From positions 1 through 64,000 of the forward strand of contig JBDRQD010000021.1 in the NCBI GenBank assembly GCA_043826455.1: 64,000 nt of DNA, read 5' to 3'. Under the pieces are notes generated by a model. That model was not told where the DNA came from, did no database searches, and was given only the letters and a program-made list of their open reading frames with translations. Below are positions 8,899 to 61,743 of this stretch, in pieces. This DNA comes from Candidatus Bathyarchaeota archaeon. GTDB taxonomy: Archaea; Thermoproteota; Bathyarchaeia; TCS64. How positions within the stretch are numbered: the first letter of the stretch is position 1; each line of letters starts with the position of its first letter. The position numbers and the translations under genes are program-made.

Positions 8899-9981
8899 CT
8901 AGTCCTTGGGCTCAGGGTCGCGCCTCAGGGACCCGGCGGCACAATGGACGCTGCCGCTGTTCATGGGCCACACAAATGTGGGTATATCAACCTCGACAAC
9001 CTCGACGCCGACGCTCTCCAGCCACCTGGTCGCCTCAGAGACGCCTGTGGGGACCAGTATCTTCATGGGCTCCAGCACTACACCCGTCTCGGGGCCGACA
9101 GGCGTCCCCTGATCTACCCTGCAGAGCTCCTTCGGCGGCACGATGAACCTCCAGCTCATCTCGGCCCTGAGCCAGTCCAGGAGGTACGGGTCCAGCCACT
9201 TGGGGTCCGCCACAGACGTATGCCTGTCCACCATGCAGTAGTGGGTCAGCTGTGGCCTGGGGCCCCACCCGGGGAGGGTCCTCACGTCCACCTCGGGGTC
9301 CTGGCCCTGGATGATGCGCTTGAACTGCTCGTGGCCCCAGTCGTTGGCCCTCCACACAGCCGGGTCGCTGGTGTTGGCCCGCGGGTAGTGTACGGTGACC
9401 AGTACGTGCTTCTCGTCGTGCCACCCTATGTTGCCTCCCTCGGCCATGCCGTTCCCCGTGATCATGCCCACGACGGGGCACCCAGCCTCGGCCAGGGTCT
9501 GGTAGGTGGGCACCTCCTCCCCCTTCCGGATATGGTCGTACATCCGTAGGATAACCTGCCCGTAGACGGCCGCGTGACACACATCATCCGTGTAGATGCT
9601 CTTAACCTGGTACGGCGGGTCGTTGGGGTCAGGCTTCCTCTCCACCACCTCGACGCCCTCGTCCCTGTAGGCCTGCCTCAGCCGCTCATAGTCCTCGGTG
9701 AGGCGCTTGAGGTCCTTGGGCCTCCAGCTCATCCTCCAGGCTGCGAGGTCGCTGCTGTGGGGCGGCCACGGCGTCGGCTTCCCGACGCTGAGGAACTCTT
9801 TGCCTGGTCTGTGAAGGAGGACGGTGCGGAGCTTGCCTACCGTGGTGTTGGCTTTCCACTTCTTGCCCCAGTACTTGGGCATCTCCTCCTCGTACTCGCT
9901 GAGCACCTGGGGGTGGTGCTTCATGTACTGCTCGTGGAGGCTGAGTCCAGTGTTTTTCTTGAACAAGTCTAACTCTGTCAT
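8899..9981 (-). CDS. Amidinotransferase / arginine deiminase-fold (pentein) protein
   Basis: GKLRTVLLHRPG.E, RKGEE, EGG, C-terminal GSVHC...LRRD. Confidence 0.8.
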   Translation of the reverse strand: MTELDLFKKNTGLSLHEQYMKHHPQVLSEYEEEMPKYWGKKWKANTTVGKLRTVLLHRPGKEFLSVGKPTPWPPHSSDLAAWRMSWRPKDLKRLTEDYERLRQAYRDEGVEVVERKPDPNDPPYQVKSIYTDDVCHAAVYGQVILRMYDHIRKGEEVPTYQTLAEAGCPVVGMITGNGMAEGGNIGWHDEKHVLVTVHYPRANTSDPAVWRANDWGHEQFKRIIQGQDPEVDVRTLPGWGPRPQLTHYCMVDRHTSVADPKWLDPYLLDWLRAEMSWRFIVPPKELCRVDQGTPVGPETGVVLEPMKILVPTGVSEATRWLESVGVEVVEVDIPTFVWPMNSGSVHCAAGSLRRDPEPKD

Positions 9982-10104
9982 AGAATCAGAGTTGATCTAG
10001 GGGTCTGAGATAATAAAACTTGATAACCGAGTCATCCCTGCTCGCTCCGTGTTCTCCGCATTATATATACGGCACCACGCGTTAACATCGGCAAGGAAGA
10101 TTAC

Positions 10105-10875
10105 ATGGTTCAGTGCGACAAGTGCGGCAAGGACGAGTACATGCCCTTCCGGTGCAAATATTGCGGAGGCTACTACTGCGCGGAGCACAGGCTCCCGGAG
10201 ATGCACGACTGCACCGGCTACTACCAGTACAGCAGGTCCACCACGGGCTCAACTGGCTTCAACCCCACAGGGTACAGCTATGGACCTCAACCCCAGAGAA
10301 GCCTCTTCTGGTTCAGCCAACGGGAGCTCAGGGACCTGGCCATCGGGCTCCTAGTCATCATAGCCATACCCCTGACAATGTGGTGGGGGTACCTTTTTCA
10401 GGCACCCATAATCATCGTGGGCGCCCTCCTCATCTTCGCCTTGGCCTTCATCCTCCACGAGCTGGCCCACAAGTTCATGGCTCAGAGGCTGGGGTACTGG
10501 GCCGAGTTCAGGATCAACCCGCAGGGCCTCATGATCACCCTCCTCAGCTTCATATCCCCCTTCAAGGTGATAGCGCCAGGGGCCGTCATGATAGGGGGCC
10601 TCATGAACTGGGACCACTACGGTAAGGTGAGCGTTGTGGGCCCGGCCACCAATATCGCCCTGGGGATCATCTACTACGCCGCCAGCCTGCTGACGGGGTC
10701 TCAGGTGGTCTACCTGCTGGCCAACATAGGGATGAACATCAACGCGAGCCTGGCCCTCTTCAACCTCATCCCCTTCGGCGTCTTCGACGGCGCCAAGATA
10801 ATGAAGTGGAACAAACTTGTCTGGGGCGCCGGCGTCCTATCAGCGGGCATCCTGTACCTGGTCTCCTCCTTCTAG
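10105..10875 (+). CDS. AN1-type zinc finger fused to M50 (site-2) intramembrane metalloprotease
   Basis: CxxC..PFxCxYC...YCxEHRLPExHxC; HELAH; GPATN; FNLIPFGVFDG. Confidence 0.9.
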   Translation: MVQCDKCGKDEYMPFRCKYCGGYYCAEHRLPEMHDCTGYYQYSRSTTGSTGFNPTGYSYGPQPQRSLFWFSQRELRDLAIGLLVIIAIPLTMWWGYLFQAPIIIVGALLIFALAFILHELAHKFMAQRLGYWAEFRINPQGLMITLLSFISPFKVIAPGAVMIGGLMNWDHYGKVSVVGPATNIALGIIYYAASLLTGSQVVYLLANIGMNINASLALFNLIPFGVFDGAKIMKWNKLVWGAGVLSAGILYLVSSF

Positions 10876-10950
10876 CCGCGTGCAAGGCTTCGAGGCGCAT
10901 AGGCCAAGAGCCCACCAGTTTATGTACCCTTTCAACCACAGTTATCTGAC

Positions 10951-11838
10951 ATGATGATCGTACCTGGGCCCGCCTCCAAGGAGCTGGGGGAAGCCATAGC
11001 CCGCCAACTGGGCGCGGAGGCTCACCCCGTGGACCACAGGTTCTTCCCCGACGGGGAGAGCTACATCAGGCTCACAGCGGACGTGAAGGGCGAGACCGTG
11101 GTCCTGGTGCAGACCACGGCCCCGGACCCGGATAGGAAGCTGGTGCAGCTTCTGGTCATGGCGAGGACGGCCAGGGACTTCGGGGCCAGACGCGTAATAT
11201 CCTGTGTGCCTTACCTGGCTTATATGCGCCAGGATAAACGGTTCCTGGAGGGGGAGGCCCTGAGCTTCGATGTGGTGCTGGGCCTCCTGGAGGACAGCGG
11301 GGTGGATGAACTTCTGGTTGTTGACCTCCACAGCGAGGAGTCCCTCAGGAGGATTCAGCCCCGCCATAGGCTCAGGGTCCACACCCTGTCAGCCATACCC
11401 GTCATAGCCCGGTACCTTAAGGAGCATGGGTACGACGGCGCCTACAGCCTCTCCCCGGATGAGGGGCGGAAGGACATAGTAAGCAGAGCCAGCGAGGTCA
11501 TGGGGGGCGGCTTCGGGTTCTTCGAGAAGGACAGGGACCTGAGGACCGGTGAGACCACCATGCTTGTGAAGGACCTGGAAGTGAAGGGCAGGAAGGCCGT
11601 GGTCTTCGACGACATCATCAGCAGCGGAGGCACCATGGCTAGAGCCATCAAGGGGCTGAAGGCTCAGGGAGCCGTCAAGGTTGCCGCAGCGTGCACCCAC
11701 GCCCTCTTCATGGAAGGGGCCGAGGAGAGGCTGAGGGACGCTGGCGCGGACCTTATCCTGGCGACGGACACTGTGGAGTCGGAGCACAGTGTCGTCTCCG
11801 TGGCTGGGCTCCTAGCGGACCGGCTGAAAAGCCTGTGA
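10951..11838 (+). CDS. prs: Ribose-phosphate pyrophosphokinase
   Basis: FPDGE.YIR, PYLAY.RQDKRF, VDLH, DDIISSGGT, ACTH. Confidence 0.95.
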   Translation: MMIVPGPASKELGEAIARQLGAEAHPVDHRFFPDGESYIRLTADVKGETVVLVQTTAPDPDRKLVQLLVMARTARDFGARRVISCVPYLAYMRQDKRFLEGEALSFDVVLGLLEDSGVDELLVVDLHSEESLRRIQPRHRLRVHTLSAIPVIARYLKEHGYDGAYSLSPDEGRKDIVSRASEVMGGGFGFFEKDRDLRTGETTMLVKDLEVKGRKAVVFDDIISSGGTMARAIKGLKAQGAVKVAAACTHALFMEGAEERLRDAGADLILATDTVESEHSVVSVAGLLADRLKSL

Positions 11839-11883
11839 CCGATACCTATTTCACAGAGCACCCATTCACTCTTAGAGAACAGG

Positions 11884-12231
11884 ATGATCAGTAGCAGGAT
11901 CAGGCTCAAGGTGCAGTCGGTGAAGGCCGTCCGGGACCCGGAGAACAGGGAGGCCTTCCAGATCGATTTCGTGGAGCTGCGCAGCAAGCCCCCGGTGATG
12001 ATGATGAGCAACCCGGAGGTGCCTGAGGAGATCAACCAGATGGTGGTCCAGGTGACCAAGAGCTTCCAGGGCATCTTCCCCGGCGCCCAAGGCAACACCT
12101 ACGAGCAGAGGAAGCTGACCCTCATCCTCACCGGTGAGGAGCTGGAGAGCTTCAGCATGAAGCCATACCCCAACCAGCTCTACGAGCTCAGCATCAGCGA
12201 GGGAGCCCTCAGCTTCCGCGAGGTAGCTTAA
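11884..12231 (+). CDS. Arcadin-1-like protein
   Basis: Length and pattern (DP....IDFVE...P; KLTLILT.EE...F; YELSISEG.L.F) resemble Pyrobaculum arcadin-1 as I recall it. Confidence 0.6.
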   Translation: MISSRIRLKVQSVKAVRDPENREAFQIDFVELRSKPPVMMMSNPEVPEEINQMVVQVTKSFQGIFPGAQGNTYEQRKLTLILTGEELESFSMKPYPNQLYELSISEGALSFREVA

Positions 12232-12274
12232 CCGTTATATTGCCCGGTCTTCAAGACTGATCGGTGGCTTTACG

Positions 12275-12646
12275 TTGATCCAGGACATCCAGCACACAGA
12301 CTTAGAGCCCATGGTTTCATCCTCAAAGGAGCCGGTGGTGGTGGAGTACTGGCACCACAAGTGTCCTGCTTGTTTGGAGATGAAGCCCGTCTACGAGAAA
12401 CTTGAGGCCCGCCTCAGAGGCAGGGCTAGGCTTGTCCGCATGAACCTCCTGGAGAGCAGGGAGAACCGGGTGCTCGCCATAAAGCAGGGTGTGAGGAGCA
12501 CGCCAACGTTCATGATCTACTGCGGCGGCGCGCCCATCGGCATCATCCTGGGCGTCAGGACCCTGGATGAGATAGAGGCGGAGGTTAATGCTCTCCTAGA
12601 GGTCAGAGACTCCTGCTTGAAAGGAACACCCCTAGAAATAGGGTGA
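12275..12646 (+). CDS. Thioredoxin family protein
   Basis: PVVVEYW..KCPAC..MKP; GVRSTPTF cis-Pro loop. Confidence 0.88.
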   Translation: MIQDIQHTDLEPMVSSSKEPVVVEYWHHKCPACLEMKPVYEKLEARLRGRARLVRMNLLESRENRVLAIKQGVRSTPTFMIYCGGAPIGIILGVRTLDEIEAEVNALLEVRDSCLKGTPLEIG

Positions 12647-56895: not shown

Positions 56896-58011
56896 TTATT
56901 CTAGCTCTCTTATCTCGATGCTTGTCATGGACGTGATGGCCTCGAAGAAGGGCTCATCCTCCTCGGTGACGAGGGTGACCGAGGTCCCCTTCTCCTCCAT
57001 GCGGCCCGTGCGGCCCACCCTGTGGAAGTAGACCTCCGGGTCCTGGGGGACCTCGTAGTTGAAGATGTGGCTCACGCCCTGGATGTCCAGGCCCCTACCG
57101 GCCACGTCGGTGGCCACTATGTACTTGAGGGTCCTGAGCTTGAAGGCCTCCAGGACCTGCCTTCTCTTGGACTGGGAGTGTTTTCCGTGGATGACCTCCA
57201 TGGGGACCCCTGCCTCGGTCAGTTTCTGGGCCAGCTCGTCCGCGGACTCCCGGGTGTTGCAGAAGATGACTGCCTGGTCTATGTCTCTGCCGCGGATTAA
57301 CTCCATGAGCCTCTGGAGCTTCTCATCCGGCTCCACCCTGACGTAGTACTGGTCCACCAGGGGCTGGGCCACCTCATCCCGAGACAGGAGCACCTCCTGG
57401 GGGCTCACCATGTAGCGCCGGGCGTACCCTATTACATCGTCGCTAAGGGTGGCGGACCACATACTGGTCTGGCGGACGAAGGGGGTCCTAGAAAGGATGA
57501 ACCCCACGTCGTCGACGAAGCCCATCTCCAGCATCTTGTCGGCCTCGTCCACCACGGCAACCTTCACGTGGCGGAGTTCGACGACCCGCCTCTTGATGAG
57601 GTGTATAAGCCGGCCGGGGGTGCCCACCAGCACATGGGCGCCCTCCTCCAGCCGGGTGATCTGTTTGATGATGTTCTCGCCGCCGTAGACTACCTGGACC
57701 TTGACGCCGGTGTACCGGGCGAACCGTCGGATCATCAATGCGACCTGCTGGGCCAGCTCCCTGGTGGGGGCTATGACCAAGCCCTGTATATGCTCCTCTG
57801 ATGCGTCCATCTTCATCACGAGGGGTACGCCGAAAGCCGCCGTCTTGCCGGTGCCCGTCTGGGCCTGCCCTATCACGTCCATCCCGTCCAGGAGGAGGGG
57901 CATGGCCTTGGCCTGTATGGGGGTGAGCTCCTTGAACCTGAGCTTCCTGAGCCCCTTCAGCACCTCCTGGCTCAGGGGAAGGTCCTTAAAACTTGTCTTG
58001 TCTGCGATCAT
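56896..58011 (-). CDS. DEAD-box RNA helicase (core only)
   Basis: Q motif TPIQ, AQTGTGKT, PTRELA, TPGR, DEAD, SAT, RGLD, HRVGRTGR; start ATG 58011. Confidence 0.95.
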   Translation of the reverse strand: MIADKTSFKDLPLSQEVLKGLRKLRFKELTPIQAKAMPLLLDGMDVIGQAQTGTGKTAAFGVPLVMKMDASEEHIQGLVIAPTRELAQQVALMIRRFARYTGVKVQVVYGGENIIKQITRLEEGAHVLVGTPGRLIHLIKRRVVELRHVKVAVVDEADKMLEMGFVDDVGFILSRTPFVRQTSMWSATLSDDVIGYARRYMVSPQEVLLSRDEVAQPLVDQYYVRVEPDEKLQRLMELIRGRDIDQAVIFCNTRESADELAQKLTEAGVPMEVIHGKHSQSKRRQVLEAFKLRTLKYIVATDVAGRGLDIQGVSHIFNYEVPQDPEVYFHRVGRTGRMEEKGTSVTLVTEEDEPFFEAITSMTSIEIRELE

Positions 58012-58111
58012 ACAGGCCCTGTACCGATTTACATAAGATCGACTGATAAAGAGTCTGGTAAAGTGTGTCAACGGTGAAAAATGCTGCGTCGAAGGTTAAA
58101 GACGGGGTGTA

Positions 58112-58285
58112 TTAGCGGCGGCGGCGTCTATTGTATTCGTCTCTCGGCTTGTAGACGATCCGGGTCATGTAGTTTTGTTTGTTGCGCCTCAGGGGACTGG
58201 GGCTCTTCGAGATGTTGGTGGTCTCGATCTTCGGGGTCTGGGCTCTCACCTTCCCAGCCTTTGTCAGGGAGCCGTGTGTTGGCAT
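58112..58285 (-). CDS. rps30e: 30S ribosomal protein S30e (eS30)
   Basis: Own translation [70 protein letters not shown] signature; not in ORF track. Confidence 0.93.
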
Positions 58286-58503
58286 TAAGCCTCAGCCGCC
58301 TGTTCCTGTGTGACTATGGTGATCTCGGTGGCTTCCTTACCCTTAGGGGTCTCGATGACCTTGAACTCTACCTCTGTGTTCACTTCCGGTATGGATGTGA
58401 CCGGGTAGTTGGATGAGTGGAAGAAGATGTCGTCTTTACTATCCTCAATCTCTATGAACCCGTATCCTTTATACGAAAAATACTTCGCTATTTTTCCTTT
58501 CAT
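58285..58503 (-). CDS. Cold-shock domain protein
   Basis: MKGKI.K.F..KGYGFI (RNP1), DIFFH (RNP2), VEF......KG..A; start ATG 58503. Confidence 0.92.
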
Positions 58504-58697
58504 ATAAAAACACTTGCACATATACGGGGGACACAGGTTATATGTCTTATGTTTTCACTGGAAAAGTCTAAAAATTTTAAAAATATTTATTTTACCGCCA
58601 AAAATATTCTTTCGGCGTGCTTAATGAAGGATATTTTTTCGATGAGAAAAGTATTTTGCCTTAATCGAGTCTCACATGAAGGCGCCACGGAGGGGCG

Positions 58698-59012
58698 CTA
58701 GGTGAATAGCCGCTTCTCCAGGCCCCGCTTCTCCTTGAACAGCTCGTCCAGGCGGGACGTGTACTCTCTAAGCTTCACCCTGTAGGCGTCCTTGACCTTC
58801 TCCTGGTCTTCGCTGTGCTTCCTGACGACGATGGTTTTAGTCATGTCCGTGGGTGACCTGACCCTGATGTTGCGGCTCCCGGTTCTGGATGAGTCCAGGA
58901 TGTCCAGGTTTCTCTTTATGCGTCTGTACTCGGTGTCAGTGTTGATGTCCTTCAGCTCTTCCTCTATCTGCATTATCCTGTTTAGTATGGTTCTTCGCGT
59001 GGGGCTCATCAA
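58698..59012 (-). CDS. Hypothetical coiled-coil protein
   Basis: Charged helical ORF with typical codon usage. Confidence 0.7.
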   Translation of the reverse strand: MMSPTRRTILNRIMQIEEELKDINTDTEYRRIKRNLDILDSSRTGSRNIRVRSPTDMTKTIVVRKHSEDQEKVKDAYRVKLREYTSRLDELFKEKRGLEKRLFT

Positions 59013-59126: not shown

Positions 59127-59390
59127 TTATGGTGCTATGACGAAGTGGGTGCGGGTGTCCGTGATGAACCCCAGGGCCTCTGAAAGGTCGTTCTGCATCA
59201 TGGCGTTCTCGTAGTCCTTCACGTCTCCCTTCATGAGGTAGACTATGCCCTCCGTTGTGCCGAAGGGGTGGCCCCAGAACACCAGCTCCATCTTGTATTT
59301 TTTCAGTATCTTGCCCACTTTCTCGAACTTCTTGGGCAGGTCACCGGGCTGGACCAGCTTCGCGTAAGATATGTAGTACTTAAACTCCAT
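59127..59390 (-). CDS. Small alpha/beta protein, paralog 1 (possibly GYD/ferredoxin-like fold)
   Basis: AAGGAG RBS; shares KK....L...G.PFG..E pattern with 61450..61743. Confidence 0.8.
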   Translation of the reverse strand: MEFKYYISYAKLVQPGDLPKKFEKVGKILKKYKMELVFWGHPFGTTEGIVYLMKGDVKDYENAMMQNDLSEALGFITDTRTHFVIAP

Positions 59391-61436: not shown

Positions 61437-61449
61437 GAAGGTGCATCAA

Positions 61450-61743
61450 GTGACCAAAGCACTGTACATATGCTTCGTGAAGTGGTCCATAGACGCCTAC
61501 AAGAAGTGGGGCGCCGACCCCGAGTACTTCAACAAGAACTGGATGCCCAAACACGACGAACTCATGAAGAAGCACAGCCTCAAGCTAGCCTACAACGGCA
61601 CACCCTTCGGGCTACCCGAGGACGCCTGCATGGTGTACGAGGGCGGCTCCGACGTGGACAAGTACAAGCAGTTCAGGCAAGCCGTCGCAGCCATAGCCCC
61701 GGGCATACTGGACTCAGCCAACACGATCATCGTCTCGCTGTGA
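61450..61743 (+). CDS. Small alpha/beta protein, paralog 2 (possibly GYD/ferredoxin-like fold)
   Basis: AAGGTG RBS, GTG start 61450; KKHSLKL..NGTPFGLPE. Confidence 0.8.
   Translation: MTKALYICFVKWSIDAYKKWGADPEYFNKNWMPKHDELMKKHSLKLAYNGTPFGLPEDACMVYEGGSDVDKYKQFRQAVAAIAPGILDSANTIIVSL

Follow-up and report, generated by a model that had tools for sequence, protein, structure and literature searches.

Why does an archaeal genome carry a gene for the ribosomal protein eS30 between a gene for a CSD protein and a gene for a DEAD-box RNA helicase? We address this question for a 64,000-nt stretch of DNA from a Candidatus Bathyarchaeota archaeon (source genome G000), referred to here as the window. A sequence-only reading had proposed that the three genes form a cold or stress translation module, possibly with a specialised eS30 paralog. 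A second eS30 among genes for RNA chaperones and transcription factors may be an alternative part of the ribosome that is made under particular conditions.

Gene content of the locus

The proposed gene order, csp, eS30 and DEAD-box helicase on one strand, was confirmed by coordinates and Pfam matches (Table 1), and on these matches all three gene calls are far beyond chance. The start of the CSD gene was set at 58503, not at the ORF-finder position 58521, on the basis of the Pfam match and three relatives. The CSD protein contains the RNP1/RNP2-like motifs KGYGFI and IFFH, and the helicase translation contains the DEAD-box helicase motifs GTGKT, PTRELA, TPGR, DEAD, SAT and HRVGRTGR intact. Against the NCBIfam models CspA, CspC, CspD, CspE and CspG the CSD protein scored 19-36 bits, below all of their cut-offs (115-152). 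The helicase, one of three DEAD-box-type helicases in G000, was likewise below the cut-offs for CshA (433 versus 646 bits), CsdA (290 versus 890) and DbpA (380 versus 524). The best named relatives are Bathyarchaeia, with a top match (L113) of 91%.

Table 1. Positions of genes and sequence elements at the csp-eS30-helicase locus of the window
Feature	Position	Strand	Remarks
CSD gene	58503-58285	-	72 aa; PF00313 49.6 bits versus cut-off 27
eS30-B (second, accessory eS30 copy)	58285-58112	-	57 aa; PF04758 42.4 bits versus cut-off 27
Minimal two-domain DEAD-box RNA helicase	58011-56896	-	371 aa; PF00270 and PF00271
Conserved 103-aa protein, cluster c69, 5' of cassette	58698..59009	-	No family named
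Putative BRE/TATA promoter box of csp-eS30B transcript	58537..58548	-	34 nt before CSD start
CSD/eS30-B junction	58283..58297	-	Weak SD-like GGCTGAGG in CSD 3' end, then TAATG
T-run, possible terminator of csp-eS30B transcript	58076..58084	-	
17-nt invariant element including TTTATC box, putative own promoter of helicase	58043..58059	-	

We infer from its position that the box upstream of csp is a promoter. A similar box precedes csp in four relatives and also precedes operons in which eS30-B follows a gene called c30. The csp and c30 promoters resemble each other, but a shared promoter motif that would mark a regulon was considered and rejected: the pattern had six matches in G000, of which only that of csp-eS30B was clear. 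A scan for bacterial-type promoters and terminators, which does not cover archaeal promoters, found nothing above shuffles. The T-run and the TTTATC box described earlier for the 100-nt spacer between eS30-B and the helicase were both located (58084-58076 and 58059-58043).

The c69 gene lies 5' of the cassette in 5/5 genomes of the window's subclade and stands divergently beside the second eS30 of G018. Its product has no Pfam or NCBIfam match over cut-off, and its best score in the Atlas search, 0.76, is a lead only. Elsewhere in the window, two short ORFs of similar make-up (59127-59390 on the minus strand and 61441-61743 on the plus strand) have no Pfam match.

A second, diverged eS30 gene

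The source genome contains two eS30 genes: a housekeeping copy, eS30-A, on contig C74, and eS30-B in the window. They are 65% identical, with a dS of 1.24. The A copy comes after genes for Rpp30 and a metallo-beta-lactamase (MBL), the usual site in the family, where Elp3 is often next, and it has a TATA-like box ~35 nt upstream. The A type is marked by a neighbourhood of Rpp30/MBL/Elp3 or pyrK together with a 20-residue linker; the copy on C74 has both, and the window copy, with a 21-residue linker at another site, has neither.

An eS30 match was found in 66 of the 71 family genomes, and 26 of these 66 contain at least two copies. In contrast, the control protein eS28 is single-copy in all 65 family genomes with a match. 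Typing covered each copy found in the window's genus, every family genome with more than one copy, and seven single-copy genomes of other genera; on this basis there are 29 second-type copies in 27/71 family genomes, namely 21 of the 32 genus genomes, four of the 18 g23 genomes, G049 and G051. No B was found in 11/32 genus genomes. Both eS30 copies of G073 are A-type, and B is the sole type in G017 and G019. Beyond the family, 195 genomes of the class gave a match, nine of them more than one, and eight of these nine have a diverged second copy (6 of 9 genomes in genus g62, plus G124 and G266); G180 has a double of eS30 in the same context. Outside the class, 4/244 genomes with a match gave two, none evidently of the accessory type: in one the two proteins are identical, in another the extra match is a fragment below threshold, and the other two each have a pair of similar copies.

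Phylogeny and selection

The eS30 tree, built on 58 columns, places the window copy on a single branch with a support of 94/92 (not starred) that holds 27 of the 29 second copies; those of G049 and G051 fall outside this main B branch. When a reduced set with outgroups was used, from which 14 near-duplicate or long rows had been dropped, 23/24 second copies came together (SH-aLRT 96), all trees resting on 56-58 columns. The subgroups of B largely match the A subgroups of the same genomes, which suggests that an old second copy has been passed on vertically and lost in places. Second copies of other families group apart, together with the first copies of g62. Independent origins in different families were considered because of this separation, yet one common origin was not rejected by the AU test (p 0.19, 63 of 95 rows).

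Judged by its substitution ratios, B is under purifying selection, with a dN/dS of 0.06-0.41 in 18/19 pairs; one pair was identical. The ratio was higher for B than for A in 15 of the 17 pairs in which both were defined, the pairs being non-independent, and such weaker selection also fits redundancy.

Conserved and divergent parts of the eS30-B protein

Only when bound to rRNA would eS30 be expected to take an ordered form. Across 20/20 aligned second copies, residues 2-14 do not vary, His4 among them. In mammals the counterpart His of eS30 is described as contacting the decoding groove (PMC5119991). The two types differ in the linker between QTP and the conserved aromatic residue, which has 20 residues in 52/52 A copies, whereas 28 of the 29 second copies have 21. 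The B linker also has fewer K/R (2.8 versus 5.0 in 14 residues) and more S/T than that of A. Only one of eight other-family second copies has 21 residues here. While eS30-B aligns without a gap to yeast eS30, both archaeal PDB chains (9E71 Ba and 9FHL e) need one, and this match in length may be convergence. The eS30-B score of 64.4 bits is below the PRK09336 equivalog cut-off of 75, which may reflect lineage rather than paralogy.

G017, a 93% complete genome, is informative on whether B can serve alone. Its Rpp30-MBL site is contiguous, the MBL stop abutting the next gene with no eS30 between; no eS30 lies upstream of Elp3, and a permissive search of the genome found only B. G017 appears to have lost A at the usual site and to have kept only B, although the case is a single genome, in which A may also lie elsewhere in unassembled sequence. 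The other genome with only B, G019, is 64% complete and uninformative on the loss of A.

Initiation signals

A GGAGG motif precedes 23 of the 29 second copies and none of 52 A copies, and 17/29 second copies have no in-frame ATG, GTG or TTG start (15 have ATA, one CTG and one GTA at the Met position), counts that largely reflect common ancestry and not independent events. The remaining second copies comprise five ambiguous cases and seven canonical starts, compared with a single A copy out of 52 that lacks a canonical start. For neighbouring conserved genes, an orthologue-based upper bound on non-canonical starts, taken from clear-consensus clusters only, was 21/260; it was used in place of a genome-wide count from SD sites, which was too noisy. 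The five CSD-coupled B copies, including that of the window, have a canonical start and no GGAGG. The frequent ATA starts mean that gene-calling programs can overlook such copies or place their start wrongly. As described in PMC6237735, aIF1 proofreads archaeal initiation complexes, and therefore the near-cognate start of B could be conditional.

The csp/eS30-B junction

Coupling of eS30-B to csp through TAATG had been claimed from the overlap of the CSD stop TAA (58287-58285) with the eS30-B ATG (58285-58283). The overlap (58287-58283) is real but not conserved: in the four closest relatives a 2-nt gap takes its place. RNA-library contigs carry a 3-nt insertion at this junction. A 1-nt overlap is also ordinary in G000, where 35 of 854 closely spaced long-ORF pairs have one and 218/854 overlap by 4 nt. 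Termination-reinitiation in archaea is described as working across short overlaps or gaps, with a spacing of ~20 nt already abolishing coupling (PMC10666635; PMC6728339). By analogy with the system of PMC10666635, the 2-nt gap of the relatives is still short enough, and we infer that eS30-B is translationally coupled to the CSD gene. The helicase would not be coupled, because its gap is 100 nt.

Neighbours of second eS30 copies

Within 2 kb of the 25 B copies we found genes for CSD proteins (18), c30 (11), TFB (7), DEAD-box helicases (5), Alba (4) and eL33 (1), the genomes counted being kin. No CSD gene lies within 2 kb of any of 62 A copies. When any member of the set CSD/Alba/TFB/c30/eL33 was counted, the flanks contained one in 21/25 B copies, 0/4 g23 copies, 5/8 other-family second copies and 0/62 A loci, of which 29 have both flanks complete. 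Four B copies, the four g23 copies and three of the eight other-family copies are thus without a neighbour from this set. Since the set was picked after the B loci had been viewed, the other-family copies are the fairer test, and five of these eight adjoin TFB, Alba, c30 or eL33. G000 is itself abundant in paralogs, with at least 11 TFB-like and 7 Alba-like loci. When five genomes of other groups with second copies were tested, no CSD gene was found in four (G080, G081, G273 and G124, 92-95% complete). The idea of a specialised eS30 paralog has gained ground from these results: a second copy exists, and it belongs to a conserved, diverged paralog group that is found repeatedly beside CSD genes.

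The window CSD protein is 53-65% identical to CSD proteins with longer frames, compared with 43% to the other CSP of G000. In five other genomes CSD-DUF4332 fusions precede B, the fusion being confirmed for two members. As the window protein is closest to these fusions, it is probably a truncated derivative of one, and the junction with eS30-B probably arose by loss of the second domain.

Other loci with related genes were noted. Contig C79 of G000 (L003, ~1-1700) has no eS30 and contains a c30-like REase-fold protein, Alba, a zinc-ribbon protein and the other CSP, the set that surrounds eS30-B elsewhere. The c30 protein itself (L042:4129-4719, L048:4491-5084 and homologues) has ~195 aa, a weak Mrr-like REase fold and a C-terminal part with Cys/His; its gene lies directly 5' of ~10 B copies and stops a few bases short of the B start, and its best score in the Atlas search, 0.87, is a lead only. 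The eL33 gene (PF01247) was not found in G000 but is present in 1/31 other genus genomes and in 22/71 family genomes, some with two matches. It adjoins the second eS30 in G049 and G237 and may be another accessory ribosomal protein. L049 (G051, ~9000-12600) combines TFB, c30, a second eS30, a CSP, an Rpo5-like protein with an N-terminal REase-like domain, and Alba. In two families (L096 of G141 and L105 of G266) the second eS30 adjoins genes for a lysine-2,3-aminomutase-like protein and a GNAT acetyltransferase, which we take to be possibly an osmolyte pathway and which possibly reflect a shared transfer. A lone B copy in L059 (G021, 1-1245) is followed by a gene pair that by eye resembles a type IV toxin-antitoxin and hints at a mobile context. 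Finally, L098:4567-5070 (G273) encodes a fusion of Alba and HhH whose start is apparently non-canonical; the fusion parallels the CSD-DUF4332/HhH fusions of the window's family.

The helicase and the three-gene module

A helicase gene is within 2 kb of B in one subclade of five genomes (G000, G065, G019, G013 and G008), in which the order csp-eS30-DEAD is kept down to 75% helicase identity. These are 5 of 37 second-copy loci, and the synteny looked for across Bathyarchaeia was not seen beyond this subclade. The caveat that the helicase might be transcribed separately proved right: 17/17 columns of a promoter-like element, ~30-46 nt before the helicase start, are invariant in 5/5 genomes in a spacer that is otherwise variable. 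Unlinked homologues of the helicase have a TATA-like box at a similar distance in five of the seven shown, and none of 14 has a CSD, Alba or TFB gene in the flanks examined. Of the proposed cold or stress module, the linkage of CSD and eS30-B (18/25 versus 0/62) stands, while the three-gene unit, with the helicase near 5/25 B copies, is weakly supported.

RNA-library contigs

The metatranscriptome evidence consists of assembled contigs of close relatives from 4 of 11 listed runs. They cover eS30-B and bridge csp and eS30-B in two of the four runs. One contig spans 57851-58339, bridging all three genes from the end of csp through eS30-B and the gap to the helicase start. Two others from two studies (58074-58455 and 58067-58256) end at 58074 and 58067, just after the T-run, a weak hint of termination there. 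The contigs are compatible with a csp-eS30B transcript that ends after the T-run with some read-through, but such contigs show neither transcripts, strand, ends nor level, and DNA carry-over is possible. Contig depth cannot rank the genes, and the depth of 89 for the eS30-B contig in run X1, versus ~4-16 for the other listed contigs, was therefore set aside. Because all 8 runs concerned have small word shares (0.05-0.15), no habitat was inferred.

Proposed explanation and alternatives

We favour, at about an even chance of being right, the explanation that the window eS30 is a ribosome-competent alternative copy, expressed conditionally with chaperone and transcription-factor paralogs and restrained at initiation. 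The eS30-B protein could still enter the 30S subunit, under control separate from that of the housekeeping copy. The A copy would be made constitutively from its own short-leader promoter, and B would be a downstream cistron whose initiation is restrained, in the window's subclade by re-initiation after the CSD stop and in most other B copies by a near-cognate start behind a strong SD. A stress or slow-growth signal, cold being a candidate, would switch the cassette on, so that CSD chaperone and eS30-B are produced together and newly made 30S subunits receive eS30-B in addition to A or in its stead. The helicase would have joined the locus later, in one subclade, and would be transcribed from its own promoter and to some extent by read-through.

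A bolder form goes further and is, we believe, unlikely: an accessory eS30 with an altered, eukaryote-length linker would replace normal eS30 under stress, next to the decoding centre and the mRNA entry channel, giving specialised ribosomes in several Bathyarchaeia lineages. The programme would have its own TFB, Alba and CSD paralogs, and the AUA-type start or the coupling to the CSD stop would act as a sensor of initiation stringency. The autoregulation of infC/IF3 and of eIF1 provides an analogy for such sensing by B. If true, ribosomes of a prokaryote would here be heterogeneous at the decoding site independently of zinc.

Foremost among the alternatives, and somewhat unlikely, is that B serves as a backup or dosage copy equivalent in function to A, placed by chance among small, highly expressed paralogs, with a linker that drifts under relaxed selection, and lost or swapped for A without harm. 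The higher dN/dS of B, the lack of a B match in 11/32 genus genomes, the survival of G017 on B alone, the grouping of both g62 copies with the accessory-type lineage and the varying neighbours all fit a backup. A backup accounts less well for the fixed linker difference (28/29) and the retention of non-canonical starts, or for the recurrence of the same kinds of neighbours in other families. Moreover, B has been kept across deep divergence (A-B dS >1 or saturated) although archaeal r-protein paralogs are described as rare: 87 genomes had 26 of them, compared with 5,412 primary genes (PMC3353972).

It is improbable that B acts off the mature ribosome, either as a basic RNA-binding helper beside CSD/Alba or, with the helicase, as a placeholder of the eS30 site during 30S assembly. 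Its neighbours are nucleic-acid chaperones and not ribosomal operons, its linker is poorer in K/R, and eukaryotic Sas10 is reported to mimic eS30 on helix 16 (PMC9932298). Against such a role are the invariant N-terminal decoding motif, G017 with only B, and the rarity of the helicase linkage.

The strict version of the sequence-only reading, in which csp-eS30-DEAD is one dedicated cold-shock operon, is quite improbable. The order conserved in five genomes and the contig bridging all three genes are in its favour, as is a report that cold shock of P. furiosus raises ribosomal proteins and favours leadered mRNAs (PMC10746257). However, the arrangement is limited to one subclade, an invariant box of its own precedes the helicase, its 14 unlinked homologues are without CSD/Alba/TFB in the flanks examined, and second copies occur in genomes that gave no CSD match.

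A binning or assembly artefact, which the 7.2% contamination of G000 and the near-identical doubles of the usual locus in G073 and G180 might suggest, is barely credible given the single eS28, a GC of 0.58 and 0.57 for the two contigs versus 0.58 for the genome, the grouping of the same genomes in the A and B trees, and the presence of B on a 378-kb contig in G018 and of second copies in the one-contig genome G137.

Comparison with known systems

Literature searches on an eS30 paralog and on cold-shock proteins of Bathyarchaeia, which covered few subscription papers, gave no description of an eS30 paralog. eS30 is not among the archaeal r-protein paralogs named in the main passages of PMC3353972, whose Table S3 could list an S30e case, and 'S30' is absent from the main text of the preprint 10.64898/2026.10.09.758139. 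The role of eS30 in archaea (PMC7531240) and the importance of ribosome heterogeneity in archaea (PMC10746257) are each stated as open questions in these papers. Both questions become testable with A and B, which are identical at the decoding tip, differ by one fixed change in the linker and carry opposite signals for initiation.

Compared with known eS30 proteins (PF04758; 9E71 Ba, 9FHL e and yeast S30), B has the common N-terminal HGSL.KAGKV..QTP and a best PDB match of E 5e-11. It differs in being a second copy, in its site outside Rpp30/MBL/Elp3 and, often, in having no canonical start.

CspA and CsdA/CshA are bacterial cold-shock factors. The window has in common with this set a CSD protein close to a DEAD-box helicase. 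It differs in that the window proteins miss the CspA/C/D/E/G and CsdA/CshA/DbpA cut-offs and that the linkage is limited to five genomes.

Archaeal termination-reinitiation resembles the window in that the genes overlap by one base (-1) or lie two apart (+2) and the upstream gene contains an SD-like motif; the published demonstrations are in Haloferax and E. coli, not in Bathyarchaeia.

The bacterial zinc-ribbon C+/C- pairs and the haloarchaeal S10p, S17e and S14 paralogs described in PMC3353972 share with eS30-B a diverged r-protein copy away from the main locus that is plausibly condition-specific. The eS30 pair departs from the C+/C- pairs, since neither G000 copy has a Cys and there is therefore no zinc swap. 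By this comparison, eS30-B most likely works like an alternative r-protein paralog and not like a zinc-swap paralog.
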